Made by a program: the position numbers and the translations under genes. The notes below the pieces were generated by a model, which was given only the letters and a program-made list of their open reading frames with translations, was not told where the DNA came from and searched no databases. 54,565 nucleotides of DNA from a virus (lineage: Duplodnaviria > Caudoviricetes), in the IMG/VR virus record IMGVR_UViG_3300010388_000206, positions 1-54,565 of that record, one strand, 5' to 3'. Numbering within the stretch: the first letter of the stretch is position 1; the number at the start of each line of letters is the position of its first letter. Positions 20,872 through 27,304 of this stretch are shown here, one piece after another.

Positions 20872-20879
20872 TATAAATA
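20872..20879 (+). promoter_or_regulatory. T4-type late promoter TATAAATA
   Basis: Exact consensus right after the terminator. Confidence 0.85.
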
Positions 20880-20904: not shown

Positions 20905-21324
20905 ATGGCTAAATTTGTTAAACCAAAATTTGAAGATCAAAGCAAGAGCTTTATGGCATTAGCCAATAAATTGTTTGCCGAAATCAGCCAACAAGATATT
21001 AAAAGAAAGCTAATCGATCAGATGATCGAAGACTTGAAGAAAAGATATACTACAAACGCTGTTCAAGACCTTAAGCTGCCCCTATGGAAATCTCTTCAAG
21101 GAACCGATTCTTGGGCTGCTGAGAAGATGACAGTGATTGAAAGAAATATAAAACGACAGGAAGTGTCAAATTTTAAACAGACAATGGTCCAGTTGCTTGA
21201 AGAGCAACCAGTAGGAACTCCTGTTATTATGATGCAGCAAAATGTTGGTATGTTGATTTCGGGTGAGAATACTTTGCTGGCATGTAGACTTTTAAACATT
21301 CAACCAAAAGTAGTAATAATCTGA
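20905..21324 (+). CDS. hypothetical late protein
   Basis: AGGAG RBS after the late promoter. Confidence 0.75.
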   Translation: MAKFVKPKFEDQSKSFMALANKLFAEISQQDIKRKLIDQMIEDLKKRYTTNAVQDLKLPLWKSLQGTDSWAAEKMTVIERNIKRQEVSNFKQTMVQLLEEQPVGTPVIMMQQNVGMLISGENTLLACRLLNIQPKVVII

Positions 21325-21776
21325 TGAAAACATTTCGACAATTCGTAGACGAAGCATCAAGAACAAAAGTAACTATGTTCAATCGTGATTTGGGCTTCAA
21401 TCCTGAATTGGATGATAATGAAAATGAAATGGGCGCTGTTGTTGATCGTCAAGATAGACCAATGGAACGACCACATCCACAAGATAAAGTGAAAAAGATT
21501 CCACTGAATAAAATGTTCCGTCACGAACCAGAAGAAAAAACAGCACTTGGTACTGCTGAGCCTGAAAACGAAAGAAAGGTTCAAGGTATCATGGCAGACA
21601 TAAAAAAGAAAAAAGATATTGATCCAATTTTGGTACGTAGACAACAGGGTGGTAAATATCAAGTGATGGATGGTCATCATCGTGTCGAAGCACACTTGAG
21701 AATGGGATTGAAGCATGTCCCTGCCAGAGTAATAGATGCTAAAAACGTCAAATATGACGGCATTGAAGAAAAGTAA
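21324..21776 (+). CDS. ParB/sulfiredoxin-like domain protein with capsid-targeting-like leader
   Basis: PILV...YQVMDGHHRVEA; N-terminus MKTFRQFVDE. Confidence 0.8.
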   Translation: MKTFRQFVDEASRTKVTMFNRDLGFNPELDDNENEMGAVVDRQDRPMERPHPQDKVKKIPLNKMFRHEPEEKTALGTAEPENERKVQGIMADIKKKKDIDPILVRRQQGGKYQVMDGHHRVEAHLRMGLKHVPARVIDAKNVKYDGIEEK

Positions 21777-21786
21777 GGATTAAATA

Positions 21787-22638
21787 ATGGCACAGTGGCG
21801 AATTGATCAACAGAAAAAAGTAGAACAAAATAGCAAGACCCTATATGAATTGGGGATGATTGCCAATGCAAACGGCAATCCGATTGCTAATGCAAATCCT
21901 TTTGCTGTTATGACTAACAATGAATTTATTTTTTCAGCGCCATGGGAATTGCAAGTTGCTCGTGGTAAAATTCCCGGTGTGTCATTGCTCAATCTATATG
22001 GATATCAGGCTTCTGTAGACGGCACATTCATTCCTGTGTGGGAAAATCCAACCACATATACATATCCGTCCAATGGCGGCGAGACTATGACGCTTTATAG
22101 TTCTTCCGCATCAGATACAAACGTATCTGTTCTGATCAGTGGTTTAGATGCAAATTTTGTCATGCAATCAGAAACATTAGTTTTAACTAATGGCACTACT
22201 GGTGTCAACACAACAAAACAATATCACCGTATTAATGATATGAGAGTAGTTGGTTCTGTAAATGCTGTTGGTATTCTAAGATTGTCAAACACTGGTAAGA
22301 CAACAACATACGCTCAAATTGCAATCGGCGCTGGTAAAACACAGTGGTCAATGTACACCGTTCCAGCGGGATATACGTTCTACTTGAACCGTGTCACTGC
22401 TGTAGCATCAGCAACATCATCTGCCAAAGTATTAGGATATAGAGTATACCAACAGTCTGCAACTGGACTTATTTCTACTGTTCTTCAGTCGCCATGGATT
22501 GATACGTATGAGACTGCACGTGTTGTGCCAAATCCATACGCAGAAAAAACAAGTATTCAATGGCAAGTAACCTCTGACACAACATCACAAGTCGGTGTTC
22601 GTGTTGAAGGTGTTTTGATAGACAACAATTTATTGTAA
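21787..22638 (+). CDS. putative virion structural protein (beta-rich)
   Basis: S/T/G-rich, late module, YTVPAGYTFY motif. Confidence 0.6.
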   Translation: MAQWRIDQQKKVEQNSKTLYELGMIANANGNPIANANPFAVMTNNEFIFSAPWELQVARGKIPGVSLLNLYGYQASVDGTFIPVWENPTTYTYPSNGGETMTLYSSSASDTNVSVLISGLDANFVMQSETLVLTNGTTGVNTTKQYHRINDMRVVGSVNAVGILRLSNTGKTTTYAQIAIGAGKTQWSMYTVPAGYTFYLNRVTAVASATSSAKVLGYRVYQQSATGLISTVLQSPWIDTYETARVVPNPYAEKTSIQWQVTSDTTSQVGVRVEGVLIDNNLL

Positions 22639-22655
22639 GTCAAATACTGAAATAT

Positions 22656-22663
22656 TATAAATA
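22656..22663 (+). promoter_or_regulatory. T4-type late promoter TATAAATA
   Basis: Exact consensus. Confidence 0.85.
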
Positions 22664-22723
22664 AAGGGTGGTTAAGGCTAAGGCAAACACCCATTTAAAC
22701 AGATAAGCCCAAGGGAAACTCTG

Positions 22724-22831
22724 ATGGATAGAACAAAAGTAACACCCCACAACCAAATTTCTTCTCCCAAGCTAGATGCCGTTGTCGGAGAAATGGGTGT
22801 TTCCTTAGTCTTAATCAACGGAATTAAATAA
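22724..22831 (+). CDS. 35-aa small ORF within the structured RNA
   Basis: MDRTKVTPHNQISSPKLDAVVGEMGVSLVLINGIK after AAGGGA. Confidence 0.4.
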   Translation: MDRTKVTPHNQISSPKLDAVVGEMGVSLVLINGIK

Positions 22832-22834
22832 GAG

Positions 22835-22866
22835 GGCTTCTTGTATTCACACAAGGGGCTTTTTTT
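22835..22866 (+). terminator. intrinsic terminator
   Basis: GGCTTCTTGT-attcac-ACAAGGGGCT followed by T-tract. Confidence 0.7.
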
Positions 22867-22881
22867 GTATAAGAGGAAAAT

Positions 22882-24300
22882 ATGAGCACACCTGAAAGTA
22901 TTAAGAACCAAGCATATAGTGCCGCACGTAAACTCGTGAGAAATCGTCTCGCTGAGAATGCTGGTGCTGAATATGAAAAGCTTGGTCTGATTGAGAAGAT
23001 GCACATTGACAAAGCCGTTGATAAAAAGGTTGACAAGATCAAAGAAATTGCTTTAAAACTAATTCCAAAAATTGTCGAAAGTAAGAAGCCTTCAGATAAG
23101 AGCGGTTCAAACGAAGAACTGAATAACAGGTTTGCGTCAAAGATCAAAACTCCCGTAAAGAAAGATGAAAAGAAGAGTGGTGGTAAAAGTCCACACATTC
23201 AAATGCATAATTCTTTCGGTGAAGAAGTTGCACTTGATAGCGCAGTCTACAAGGCCATTGTCAAGAAGTCTGAAAAGTCAGGCGTAGATATCGACACTCT
23301 TGGCGAAGTATATAATCGTGGTATGAGTGTATGGTATGAAGACACAAACGTATCACAACAGCAATATGCATTTGCTCGTGTAAACTCTTTCATCAATAAG
23401 GGCAAGACATATTTCAACGAAGATAATGATCTTGCAGAAGCCACATATCAAGGCAAGAAAGTTCCTCTGAATAAGCCAATGGCTGGTGACGTTAAGAAGT
23501 CAAAGGTCTATGTTGATCCTGATGGTGATGGCAAGGCACAGAAGGTAAACTTTGGTGACAAGACACTCAGTATCAAAAAGGACAATCCTGCTCGTAAGAA
23601 GTCATATTGTGCTCGTTCTGGTGGTCAAGGAAATCTAAACGACAAGACTTCAGCTAACTACTGGTCACGTAAGGCATGGAATTGTGAAGAGGTTGATAGG
23701 ACCAAGCCAGAGAATCGTGAAGAGGGTACTGACAACCTAGTCAAGATTTACAAGAAAGATACTCCCGGTCAGAACCTAGACGAATCATTCAACATGGCAT
23801 TCGACTATCAGGGAAAGCCAACACTGGCACCTACAGCACACGAACTTATGATGAAAACCCAAGGTGGTTTTGCACATCACAATGACGTACAGGACGTTAT
23901 GAACGTCACATCAATCAAGGAACAGATTGAGAAAGCTTTCCAAGCTACTATTCTTGAAGAAGATAAGAATGAGCTAGCTATCTCTATCGACAACCTAATT
24001 GATATGGTCAATGAAGCATTTACGACTATCGCAAACATCAAGTCTTCAAACATCGAACGTGATGCATGGTCACAGGCGCAGATTCTAAAGCTTGAACGCT
24101 ATATTGAATCAGTTGCTGCCTATATTGAAAACATGGATGAAACTGTAAGAAGCGGCGAGACACATGGTGTTATCGTTCCTGCACACACAATTGTCAGTCA
24201 GAAGACAGGGCAATCAATCACTATACCTGCTAAGTCAAAGAAGGTAAAGAAGAATGATGTTGTTCTTCATCCCCATGACAATCCATTTGATGGTAAATGA
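22882..24300 (+). CDS. modular late protein, putative internal head protein
   Basis: Mosaic of short modules (YAFARVNSFI; KVNFGD...KKSYCARS...SANYWSRKAW) with acidic linkers. Confidence 0.65.
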   Translation: MSTPESIKNQAYSAARKLVRNRLAENAGAEYEKLGLIEKMHIDKAVDKKVDKIKEIALKLIPKIVESKKPSDKSGSNEELNNRFASKIKTPVKKDEKKSGGKSPHIQMHNSFGEEVALDSAVYKAIVKKSEKSGVDIDTLGEVYNRGMSVWYEDTNVSQQQYAFARVNSFINKGKTYFNEDNDLAEATYQGKKVPLNKPMAGDVKKSKVYVDPDGDGKAQKVNFGDKTLSIKKDNPARKKSYCARSGGQGNLNDKTSANYWSRKAWNCEEVDRTKPENREEGTDNLVKIYKKDTPGQNLDESFNMAFDYQGKPTLAPTAHELMMKTQGGFAHHNDVQDVMNVTSIKEQIEKAFQATILEEDKNELAISIDNLIDMVNEAFTTIANIKSSNIERDAWSQAQILKLERYIESVAAYIENMDETVRSGETHGVIVPAHTIVSQKTGQSITIPAKSKKVKKNDVVLHPHDNPFDGK

Positions 24301-24342: not shown

Positions 24343-24783
24343 ATGGATAAGCTAATTGAACAAATGAAGAAAGTGCTGGCTGATGTTTATGTATATGGAC
24401 TAAAAGCACAGAACTTTCATTGGAATGTTGAAGGTCCAGATTTCGTACAGTATCATGAATTTTTTGGTGAAGTGTATGAAAAGGCTTCTGCTGATGTAGA
24501 TTTGGTTGCTGAGCACATTCGTGCGCTAGATGCATATGCTCCTGCTTCATTAAAGCGTTTTCAAGAATTAGCTTCAATTGAAGACGAGACAACAATACCA
24601 AGCGCACTTGAAATGATGGCTAGACTATCTCAGGACAATGCTAAGGTTCTTGCGTCTGCTAAGACTGCTTGTGAAACCGCAGAAGAATTGAAGCAACGTG
24701 GTATTCTCAATTTCCTTGAAGGTATCATCGATGAATATGAAAAGCAAGCATGGATGCTACGTTCAATTGTAAAGAGAGTCTAA
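24343..24783 (+). CDS. dps: Dps-family ferritin-like protein
   Basis: KAQNFHWNVEGPDF..YHEFF..VY...DLVAEHIRAL, EKQAWML. Confidence 0.93.
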   Translation: MDKLIEQMKKVLADVYVYGLKAQNFHWNVEGPDFVQYHEFFGEVYEKASADVDLVAEHIRALDAYAPASLKRFQELASIEDETTIPSALEMMARLSQDNAKVLASAKTACETAEELKQRGILNFLEGIIDEYEKQAWMLRSIVKRV

Positions 24784-27296: not shown

Positions 27297-27304
27297 TATA
27301 AATA
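27297..27304 (+). promoter_or_regulatory. T4-type late promoter TATAAATA
   Basis: Exact consensus. Confidence 0.85.

Follow-up and report, generated by a model that had tools for sequence, protein, structure and literature searches.

The leader of the MS2 maturation gene, studied in the van Duin laboratory, reportedly combines a long-distance interaction with a hairpin that acts as a kinetic trap. In attenuators of the pyrBI type, a translating ribosome occludes the terminator, and type I toxin mRNAs such as those of hok/sok are inhibited by folding back on themselves. The T4 late genes for lysozyme (e), soc, and I-TevI carry RNA hairpins around the ribosome binding site (RBS), and the guanidine-II (mini-ykkC) and NAD+-I (nadA) riboswitches are tandem look-alike hairpins. 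Structured late-gene leaders of T4-like phages have so far come from a handful of laboratory phages. Here we analyze a leader from freshwater phages that are abundant and uncultured; the cultured phages nearest to them infect SAR11 and OM43 bacteria. It occupies positions 22656 to 22881 of IMG/VR record IMGVR_UViG_3300010388_000206 (54,565 nt; this whole stretch is called the window below), directly upstream of a gene for a 472-aa protein. We find that this leader, which had not been catalogued before, is a real structured RNA that precedes one late gene in a group of T4-like phages of fresh water; in the phage of the window a stop codon and a terminator have separated it from that gene, so that it resembles a small independent RNA. 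A first-pass annotation of the window had listed its parts and missed the main point, namely, that the element is a conserved 5' leader together with the first codons of a downstream gene family, split off from that gene here.

No description of this leader family was found in the literature, nor was any paper on DUF5824, the domain that the downstream genes usually bear. The accessible part of a study of pelagimyophage genomes (PMC7029224) reports a riboswitch scan without finds. A survey of structured RNAs in IMG/VR (PMC10690425) gives, in its accessible part, 8,495 intergenic candidates of 29 to 151 nt, 879 of them no more than 25 bases upstream of a gene. These candidates may already include part of the two-hairpin leader; since they are described there as intergenic only, a helix reaching into an open reading frame (ORF) could not be found among them.

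Results

Two mutually exclusive folds of the leader

The elements named in the first-pass annotation (a promoter octamer, two hairpins with a Shine-Dalgarno [SD] sequence in the second, a 35-codon ORF, a terminator-like hairpin, and the 472-aa ORF) were all present. In positions of the window, the leader and its downstream gene comprise the following features:

22656..22663, plus strand: octamer TATAAATA, exact; candidate T4-type late promoter.
22666..22692, plus strand: hairpin 1 (HP1), with a GGGTG/CACCC stem (22666-70 with 22688-92) or with GGT/ACC in a register like that of hairpin 2.
22673-88, plus strand: 16-nt core of HP1, TAAGGCTAAGGCAAAC.
22669..22695, plus strand: 5' arm of the long-range helix, overlapping HP1 (RNAfold minimum free energy [MFE] structure and covariation).
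22700..22723, plus strand: hairpin 2 (HP2), with a CAGA/TCTG lower stem, a CC/GG upper stem, and the core TAAGCCCAAGGGAAAC.
22711-16, plus strand: SD-like AAGGGA within HP2; the ATG at 22724 follows directly after HP2.
22724..22831, plus strand: 35-codon leader ORF (MDRTKVTPHNQISSPKLDAVVGEMGVSLVLINGIK), with the stop codon TAA at 22829-31.
22762..22792, plus strand: inner hairpin TTCTCC...GGAGAA within the leader ORF (RNAfold).
22791..22816, plus strand: 3' arm of the long-range helix, at ORF codons 23-31 (RNAfold MFE structure and inverted-repeat self-search).
22836..22866, plus strand: terminator-like hairpin of 9 bp with the loop ATTCAC (hairpin at 22836-59), followed by seven T residues (22860-66).
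22873..22884, plus strand: RBS GAGGA and ATG (at 22882) of the 472-aa gene.
22882..24300, plus strand: 472-aa gene, coding for a mosaic protein of the DUF5824 family (Pfam PF19141, E 1.3e-7).

In the MFE structure of 22656-22881, the long helix consisted of 15 bp, a bulged C (22684), and 11 bp, joining 22669-95 to approximately 22791-816. The 26-bp helix noted before was thus recovered by RNAfold, with its 5' arm displaced by one base (22669-95, not 22670-96). Folding of the plus strand yielded -64.9 kcal/mol, compared with -48.2 +/- 4.5 kcal/mol for 200 dinucleotide shuffles (z -3.71; 0/200 as good), whereas the fold of the opposite strand had a z value of only -1.63, with 10 of 200 shuffles as good. 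A self-search of the window returned the two arms as a 27-nt inverted repeat of 89%. Since the 5' arm overlaps HP1, the long helix and HP1 are mutually exclusive.

A third pairing (ACACCCC/GGGUGU, 22742-22749 with 22794-22799) emerged once the 5' arm was omitted from the fold. By eye, and with alignment registers that differ, it apparently covaries (CGCCC/GGGCG in locus L062; CAACC/GGUUG in L032 and L049). As modeled, this pairing would compete with the inner portion of the long helix.

Distribution of the leader family

Family members were found by exact-motif scans; the invariance of the HP2 core is partly fixed by the search pattern and is not independent evidence. The exact 22-nt HP2 motif was present in 96 IMG/VR viral-contig stretches, and a looser pattern, with the HP2 core and the ATG fixed, in at least 119 IMG/VR contigs; both scans together gave 64 distinct 5' untranslated regions (5'UTRs). 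Matching loci held one copy each (105/132 loci matched), as did the window. Only three loci were retrieved with the 472-aa protein as the sole query. Relatives of the 283-aa gene upstream of the leader were found at 33 loci, 8 of which had the leader; it was not found at the more distant ones (24 loci with usable sequence, of 25).

The motif was not found in the GenBank phages searched or in either of the complete records of the cultured phages HTVC008M and Melnitz-3. Among 185,579 prokaryote genomes (one per species), there were six matches, all without the stem and promoter context. These are only chance matches, as their number lies below the rough expectation of ~17. Rfam 15 at gathering thresholds gave no match in the whole window, in line with the earlier failure to match the RNA to a known family; a ribozyme, which had also been considered, is without Rfam support. 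At E<=10, the region 22600-22920 returned only PyrR (18.2 bits versus 54, E 3.3) and ToxI (15.3 versus 50, E 3.1), both at chance level. In six related loci the Rfam scan returned only two tRNAs, located elsewhere in the loci.

The exact motif stood in 68 distinct contexts. The ATG behind HP2 opened a closed ORF of 443 to 783 codons in 28 of them and of 33 to 40 codons in 10; the ORF was cut by the contig end in the remaining 30. Sequences with the short ORF form the window's clade, which counts 13 distinct members (10 and 3 later ones); the long clade named below has long ORFs. The octamer TATAAATA, whose role as a T4 late promoter we take from T4 biology, was by itself not above chance in the window (4 sites versus 2.6 expected; 26/100 shuffles reached 4). 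The exact octamer was found in the same position in 62 of 65 related leaders.

Coevolution of the two arms of the long helix

The proposal that selection acts on the RNA of the plus strand, through two exclusive folds, was borne out by covariation in both: among the homologues collected, the stems of both hairpins covaried and the arms of the long helix had coevolved. The long helix was part of the MFE structure in 14/14 representatives of both architectures. Its duplex reached -26 kcal/mol or stronger in 54 of 56 contexts (exceptions, L041 and L053), and all 63 distinct arm pairs formed duplexes of -25 kcal/mol or stronger, corresponding to a regular helix of more than two turns. The helix started 1 to 9 nt past TATAAATA in 63/65 leaders and ended 0 to 5 nt before HP2. 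As T4 late transcripts begin a few bases past the octamer, the helix would include the very 5' end of the RNA. The 3' arm lay 117 to 170 nt past the ATG in the long forms and 36 to 130 nt past it in other clades.

In the window's clade, the model (10 sequences, 45 pairs) had 95.1% of cells paired and nine pairs changed on both sides; none of 500 shuffles reached the observed values on four of five measures, and one did so on the fifth. The outer 13 bp were 98.4% paired, with two pairs changed on both sides and four switching between G-C and G-U, and L040 showed two exchanges of U-A for C-G. Exchange of arms between loci provided the more powerful test: cognate arms had a mean of -36.7 kcal/mol, compared with -18.2 +/- 4.2 kcal/mol for shuffled 3' arms. 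Across clades, 5' arms of the window's clade combined with long-clade 3' arms gave -18.1 kcal/mol, and the converse combination gave -25.6 kcal/mol. The arms of L040, L069, L059, and L101 each favored their own or their nearest partner's arm.

Mismatches by transition were biased toward those tolerated in RNA of the plus strand. Over the 63 arm pairs, whose rows are not independent, G-U outnumbered A-C by 137 to 72, and in the summed rows of the window's clade by 32 to 7. This excess favors selection on the plus-strand RNA over a repeat maintained at the DNA level.

The helix was not returned by RNAalifold from a mixed alignment of 42 sequences. This was because MAFFT placed the two clades in different registers, and the clades were therefore analyzed apart. 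No convincing helix was present in L207, L219, and L221 (duplexes of -18 to -20 kcal/mol) or in L200 (-21.7 kcal/mol). The ORFs of L200, L207, and L219 begin directly with a nucleotidyltransferase-like segment; that of L221 does not. Pairing of the 3' arm with HP2, as an anti-SD sequence, was considered and rejected, since over 65 arm pairs it was no better than in shuffles (mean z -0.06); in the window alone, the duplex of the 3' arm with HP2 had a z value of -2.1.

The inner hairpin was 100% paired over its 6 bp in 10/10 members of the window's clade, but with five invariant pairs it provides no evidence of covariation. A second octamer, TCCTCAGC (codons for PQ plus flanks; positions 164-171 of L001), was invariant in 25/25 long-clade sequences, without any synonymous change, and its neighbors varied. 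To judge from the alignment, it is possibly a further constraint at the RNA level.

Covariation and likeness of the two hairpins

HP2, evaluated over six pairs in 45 distinct leaders, was 98.1% paired, and five of the six pairs had changed on both sides (39 cells). Its stem occurred as CAGA/UCUG, UGGU/ACCA, UGGA/UCCA, CCGA/UCGG, CUGA/UCAG, and other variants. On four of five measures none of 500 shuffled controls reached the observed value, whereas on further pair types 139 did; slid controls dropped to 10 to 54% paired. The core had the form UAAG-CC-NNAG-GG-AAAC, with variation confined to the apical four bases. The upper stem of HP2 had changed from GCCC..GGG to GUCC..GGA in L133, again compensatory.

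The 4-bp stem of HP1 was 94.5% paired in 42 sequences, with two pairs changed on both sides. A wider set included the stems GCGG/CCGU, GUGG/CCAC, GCAG/CUGC, UCGUGG/CCACGA, and UGAUAG/CUAUCA, and despite these differing stems, the loop remained near AGGCUACGGCAA. In 51 of 62 distinct leaders, the HP1 core was enclosed by an MFE hairpin of at least three stacked pairs. The first-pass annotation had also proposed that the HP1 loop GGCT pairs with AGCC in HP2. This kissing interaction had to be abandoned, as L040, L069, and L181 have GGCC with AGCC unchanged and the 3' arm compensates instead; leaders of the L198 type, which have AGCT, speak against it as well.

Within the window, the cores of HP1 and HP2 (22673-88 and 22704-19) were identical at 13 of 16 positions and were the sole exact matches to a degenerate core pattern. 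A covariance model built from 15 HP2 variants found HP1 as the second-best match in the window (25.2 bits, E 2e-4; next match, E 0.9). The same model gave a weak match to the 3' arm (10.8 bits, E 2.5; opposite strand) and recovered HP1 at E<=1 in three of ten other loci. The likeness of the two hairpins is clear in the window's clade and weaker elsewhere.

Some leaders deviated from the common layout. L041 and L053 have HP2 without HP1 or the long helix, upstream of ORFs of the same gene family (L041:10027-11367 and L053:5379-7043). There, CTAAATAG lies ~9 nt upstream of HP2, which places the predicted transcript start right at HP2. In two members of the window's clade (L069:4486-4576 and L181:8619-8713), an extra hairpin of 8 bp is inserted between TATAAATA and HP1; their homologues of the 472-aa protein have N-terminal additions of 200 to 300 residues.

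The leader ORF as the probable detached start of a longer gene

The leader always preceded a mosaic gene family, usually bearing DUF5824. In other clades it was joined to proteins mixing DUF5824, DUF6321, DUF5661, and a weak cytidylyltransferase-like domain. A PDB sequence search with the 472-aa protein of the window gave no match, and a protein atlas returned DUF5824 clusters only, with a low-confidence model.

The long ORFs carry an N-terminal extension, to which the 35-codon ORF was homologous. Residue 1 of the 472-aa protein aligned to residue 88 of the 505-aa ORF of L001 (E 3e-34), which starts at the ATG behind HP2. A homologue of the 472-aa gene was present downstream, past the terminator, in 13/13 members of the window's clade. 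In L040, L049, L062, and L066, this gene starts with MDELDE..L.I.QRQKRA, equivalent to what comes after the 3' arm in the long forms (..EKKALTLVQRQRRA). The shared segment indicates either that the window's clade arose by splitting of the long gene behind the 3' arm or that the long form is a fusion; the comparison is unrooted. On the best reading of the alignments, a stop codon, a terminator, and a new RBS would have divided an original long gene immediately behind the 3' arm. In the 10 clade members whose U-tract was correctly placed by our script, a site of the AGAGGA type and an ATG followed 14 to 19 nt past this tract. Translational bypass from the leader ORF into the 472-aa frame, looked for by eye, was rejected: every clade member has an ordinary RBS and ATG, and there are no matching in-frame take-off and landing codons.

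Frame 0 of the leader ORF was open from the ATG through the 3' arm in 13/13 clade members, whereas the other frames contained one to six stops (+1, all 13) and zero to three stops (+2, 10/13). Length differences were multiples of three. Pairwise differences at the three codon positions numbered 759, 696, and 873, a weak bias, and nonsynonymous codon differences exceeded synonymous ones (1107 versus 317). Conserved peptide positions were P8, SSP, LD, V, GE, and L.L; S16, V23, and G25 are each encoded by a single codon and lie within RNA helices. No PHROG match to the 35-aa peptide was found. From the open frame and the weak codon bias, we take it that the region is selected to be translated and that the peptide itself is under little constraint.

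In long-clade ORFs (e.g., L001:3874-5388), an [LI]xE motif and then (R/K)KALT[LI].QRQ come within 0 to 3 residues after the peptide that the 3' arm encodes (..EDxxV.LT..). This order was found in 27 of 29 ORFs; the remaining two have IQE or LDE inside the arm as counted by script. T4-type prohead proteases cleave after motifs resembling [LI]xE. If, by analogy, such cleavage holds here, the first 50 to 70 residues would be the propeptide of a head-associated protein, which would account for the gene tolerating a split precisely behind the 3' arm.

A terminator close to the leader stop codon

The terminator hairpin in the window had 9 bp and -9.7 kcal/mol (RNAfold). Over 10 relatives, 94.4% of the cells of its stem were paired and 4 of 11 pairs had changed on both sides. 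The stop codon of the leader ORF lay between 7 nt inside and 9 nt upstream of the start of the stem in 12/12 members; 10 of these distances were taken by script, those of L029 and L133 were read by eye because the script had taken a T-run in the loop, and L181 was left out. To judge from the known size of the ribosome footprint, a ribosome terminating so near the stem would cover its 5' half.

An attenuator had been suggested from the outset. The suggestion fits the window's clade in that the leader ORF ends at -7 to +9 nt from the terminator stem (12 members), close enough for a ribosome to cover the 5' stem as in pyrBI. A trp-like alternative hairpin competing with the terminator was not found; the terminator was still predicted in 10/10 members once the 5' arm was removed.

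The phage and the neighborhood of the leader

The IMG/VR record of 54.6 kb has an estimated completeness of one third. A T4-type DNA polymerase, UvsX, a replicative helicase, a primase, and NrdA are all encoded in the window. DNA runs containing this stretch came from freshwater, lake, and wastewater metagenomes. The best matches of the 472-aa protein among cultured phages were hypothetical proteins of Pelagibacter phage HTVC008M and of Methylophilales Melnitz phages (both Kyanoviridae), with 42 to 45% identity across a third of the protein. The late unit is flanked by two further genes:

21324-21776: 150-aa protein with a ParB-like nuclease domain.
24343-24783: 146-aa match to PHROG 3636, annotated as a DNA binding protein.

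Two other exact TATAAATA octamers on the plus strand lie at 20872-20879, upstream of a 139-aa ORF (20905), and at 27297-27304, upstream of a 212-aa ORF (27338). They are likely further late promoters; motif scans of the window did not find the hairpin motif after either of them. No tRNA genes were found in the window, and a related contig carries two of them ~4 kb from its leader (L204:7413-7567). In two DNA metagenome runs (X3 and X4), contigs end within the leader, at 22698-22752, and one X4 contig has HP2 with flanks of the long-clade type. A single lake sample hence has phages of both the short and the long form, and assemblies break up at the motif common to them.

Discussion

Our preferred reading, which we hold tentatively and would stop short of calling probable, is that the element is a cis-acting leader of a late mRNA, in which HP1 and a helix between the 5'UTR and the coding sequence (CDS) alternate under the control of translation and which is attenuator-like in the window's clade. 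We infer that the transcript would start at the T4-type late promoter, its first nucleotides forming HP1. The similar HP2 presents the SD sequence in its upper part, with the start codon immediately behind. A segment of the frame 15 to 55 codons further on, being the reverse complement of the whole HP1 region, could then capture the latter. Fold A would consist of HP1 and HP2. In fold B, the 5'UTR-CDS helix of 26 to 33 bp would bury the 5' end, abolish HP1, and enclose HP2, the AUG, and the first codons. Ribosomes on the first codons would keep the 3' arm unwound and thereby maintain fold A, and when translation stops, the helix could close. Fold B might alter the fate of the message, by lower initiation or by changed stability or processing. 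We propose that translation of the first codons sets the state, since the frame across the arm is kept although it encodes little else of value. In the window's clade, where the leader ORF stops 7 nt before the terminator stem and the 472-aa gene restarts at its own RBS, the leader ribosome would come to lie over the 5' half of the stem, such that read-through into the 472-aa gene would need leader translation, as in pyrBI-type control. Untranslated transcripts would end as a structured RNA of ~198 nt.

Several observations weigh against the switch just outlined. The 5' arm is nearly invariant in the long clade, where the counts do not beat shuffles on most measures; variation there consists of G-C/G-U changes on the coding side. 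Because this arm hardly varies, the case for covariation rests on differences between clades and hence on few independent events. Six relatives without the long helix (L041, L053, L207, L219, L221, and L200) keep HP2, so that the helix is not indispensable. Exchange between inverted repeats at the DNA level could in principle keep the arms alike. Two RNA runs contained part of the stretch; their contigs covered the upstream gene at 22329-22645 and a small segment of the 472-aa gene, and none lay over the leader. A simple consensus scan called no terminator and did not flag the hairpin with its U7 tract; we accepted the terminator because of its RNAfold structure and its covariation in relatives. 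No antiterminator competes with this terminator in 10 clade members, and the way in which the gene was split could by itself have brought stop codon and terminator close together.

Other explanations start from the same features. A helix of more than two turns with few defects in all 63 to 65 distinct arm pairs (26 bp and one bulge in the window) would suit cleavage in both arms by an enzyme of the RNase III type, which would remove the leader and set the level or lifetime of the message. The helix links the very 5' end to an internal site, as do the stems flanking rRNA precursors, and it is retained despite its cost in coding freedom. In the window's clade, such processing would release a stable RNA of ~120 nt. 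In the long-ORF relatives, however, it would sever the first 40 to 70 codons, so that a late gene of the phage itself would lose its reading frame, and six relatives manage without the helix; we regard processing as unlikely. The hairpins themselves could be an operator or aptamer, with look-alike loops of the UAAG/AAAC type binding either a translational repressor, which may be the product of the gene itself, or a small molecule, as in the riboswitch that the first-pass annotation had suggested, and the long helix serving as the expression platform. This would account for the conserved unpaired nucleotides of the cores, the covariation of both stems, the recovery of HP1 as second-best match in 54.5 kb by a model of HP2 only, the location of the SD sequence within HP2, and the strict tie of the motif to one gene family, and guanidine-II and NAD+-I riboswitches are likewise built of tandem look-alike hairpins. 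Yet only 3 of 10 other loci showed the likeness at E<=1, and the need to match the coding 3' arm constrains the HP1 core as well. The hairpins are small and simple and are not matched by Rfam riboswitch models, and the gene context, consisting of domains of unknown function and a weak cytidylyltransferase-like match, suggests neither a ligand nor a binding protein. We hold the operator to be rather improbable. Doubtful, too, is a new class of sensor RNA, in which a ligand or phage protein would bind the hairpin pair, helix and ribosome traffic would convert binding into control of a late protein, and the window's clade would have a free-standing RNA gene.

That the unit in the window's clade is a gene of its own, for an abundant, trans-acting late small RNA (sRNA) of ~198 nt or for a micropeptide of 33 to 40 aa, would agree with its own promoter and covarying terminator, the frame maintained in 13/13 members, the conserved peptide positions, and the separate RBS of the downstream gene. 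But these positions coincide with RNA helices, several as single codons, and the 759/696/873 distribution indicates little selection at the protein level. The peptide has no PHROG match, and the unit was never found away from a DUF5824-family gene (13/13), whose start it forms in most relatives. We consider a separate gene distinctly unlikely; the stand-alone sRNA suggested earlier can hold at most in the window's clade. Insertion of a terminator in a recent accidental split would by itself bring stop codon and terminator together and leave the leader ORF and the helix as decaying relics. Given that the split form exists in 13 distinct sequences which, through many substitutions and indels, have kept frame, helix, and terminator, with compensatory changes of the helix in L040 and L069, we give this explanation very little credence. 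Less still can be said for an inverted repeat serving at the DNA level as an inversion or recombination site, or for a fold-back mRNA resembling type I toxin-antitoxin systems. The 89% repeat of 27 nt in the window would suit the former, but strand asymmetry in mismatches (G-U/A-C of 137/72, or 32/7 in the short clade) and in folding (z of -3.7 versus -1.6), the start of the helix at the predicted transcript start, and the location of the repeat in a coding frame speak for RNA. The type I toxin had been proposed in the first-pass annotation, and pairing of the 5' end with a downstream site next to a small ORF does recall hok-type mRNAs. The peptide, however, has no hydrophobic stretch of membrane length, only ~10 hydrophobic residues at its end, and it is the N terminus of a protein of 443 to 783 aa in 28 relatives, where the same ATG opens the closed long ORF. 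In a scan for sigma-70-type promoters, no antisense site overlapped the ORF, and the only minus-strand site (22661-22632) points away from it.

What sets the family apart is its presence in at least 119 viral contigs, its several independent covarying helices, and a noncoding 5' end that is kept complementary to the message's own frame. The split form in the window can be seen as evolution's own experiment: as RNA module and open frame were retained after detachment from the protein, they seem to matter more as RNA and as a translated stretch than as a peptide. The leader is a compact, testable case of control by 5'UTR-CDS pairing and a candidate for a new Rfam family.

Compared with the candidates of the IMG/VR survey (PMC10690425), the leader derives, as far as the accessible part of that survey describes them, from the same source data.

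The structured late genes of T4 share with it the T4-type phage background, the octamer TATAAATA at the edge of a helix, and structure near the translation start. In T4, however, the late start lies inside the hairpin, so that one arm is lost, whereas here both arms are downstream of the promoter (63/65 leaders). Like the guanidine-II and NAD+-I riboswitches, the leader has two small hairpins with covarying stems and conserved unpaired bases, the second of which overlaps the RBS; unlike them, it has other conserved bases, no Rfam match, and a long-range arm without a counterpart in those systems. With hok/sok it has in common a 5' end that pairs downstream, local 5' hairpins that compete with this pairing, and a small ORF. 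Here, though, the peptide does not resemble a toxin, the 5' end folds back onto an internal segment and not onto the 3' end, and a large protein is encoded in most relatives.

The window's clade shares with pyrBI a short leader ORF whose end lies at or within the 5' half of an intrinsic terminator before the gene. In contrast to pyrBI, no regulatory codon run was noticed in 13 peptides and there is no antiterminator hairpin; moreover, the unit here would have arisen by splitting of a long ORF, and most family members are without a terminator. The MS2 leader differs in that the distant partner is the SD region, whereas here the SD sequence is in a hairpin of its own and the partner lies 15 to 55 codons inside the ORF, in the late mRNA of a DNA phage with no sequence relation to MS2. 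In both, however, a 5' segment either forms a local hairpin or pairs far downstream, exclusively, and the timing of ribosome loading decides expression in MS2 and would do so here.

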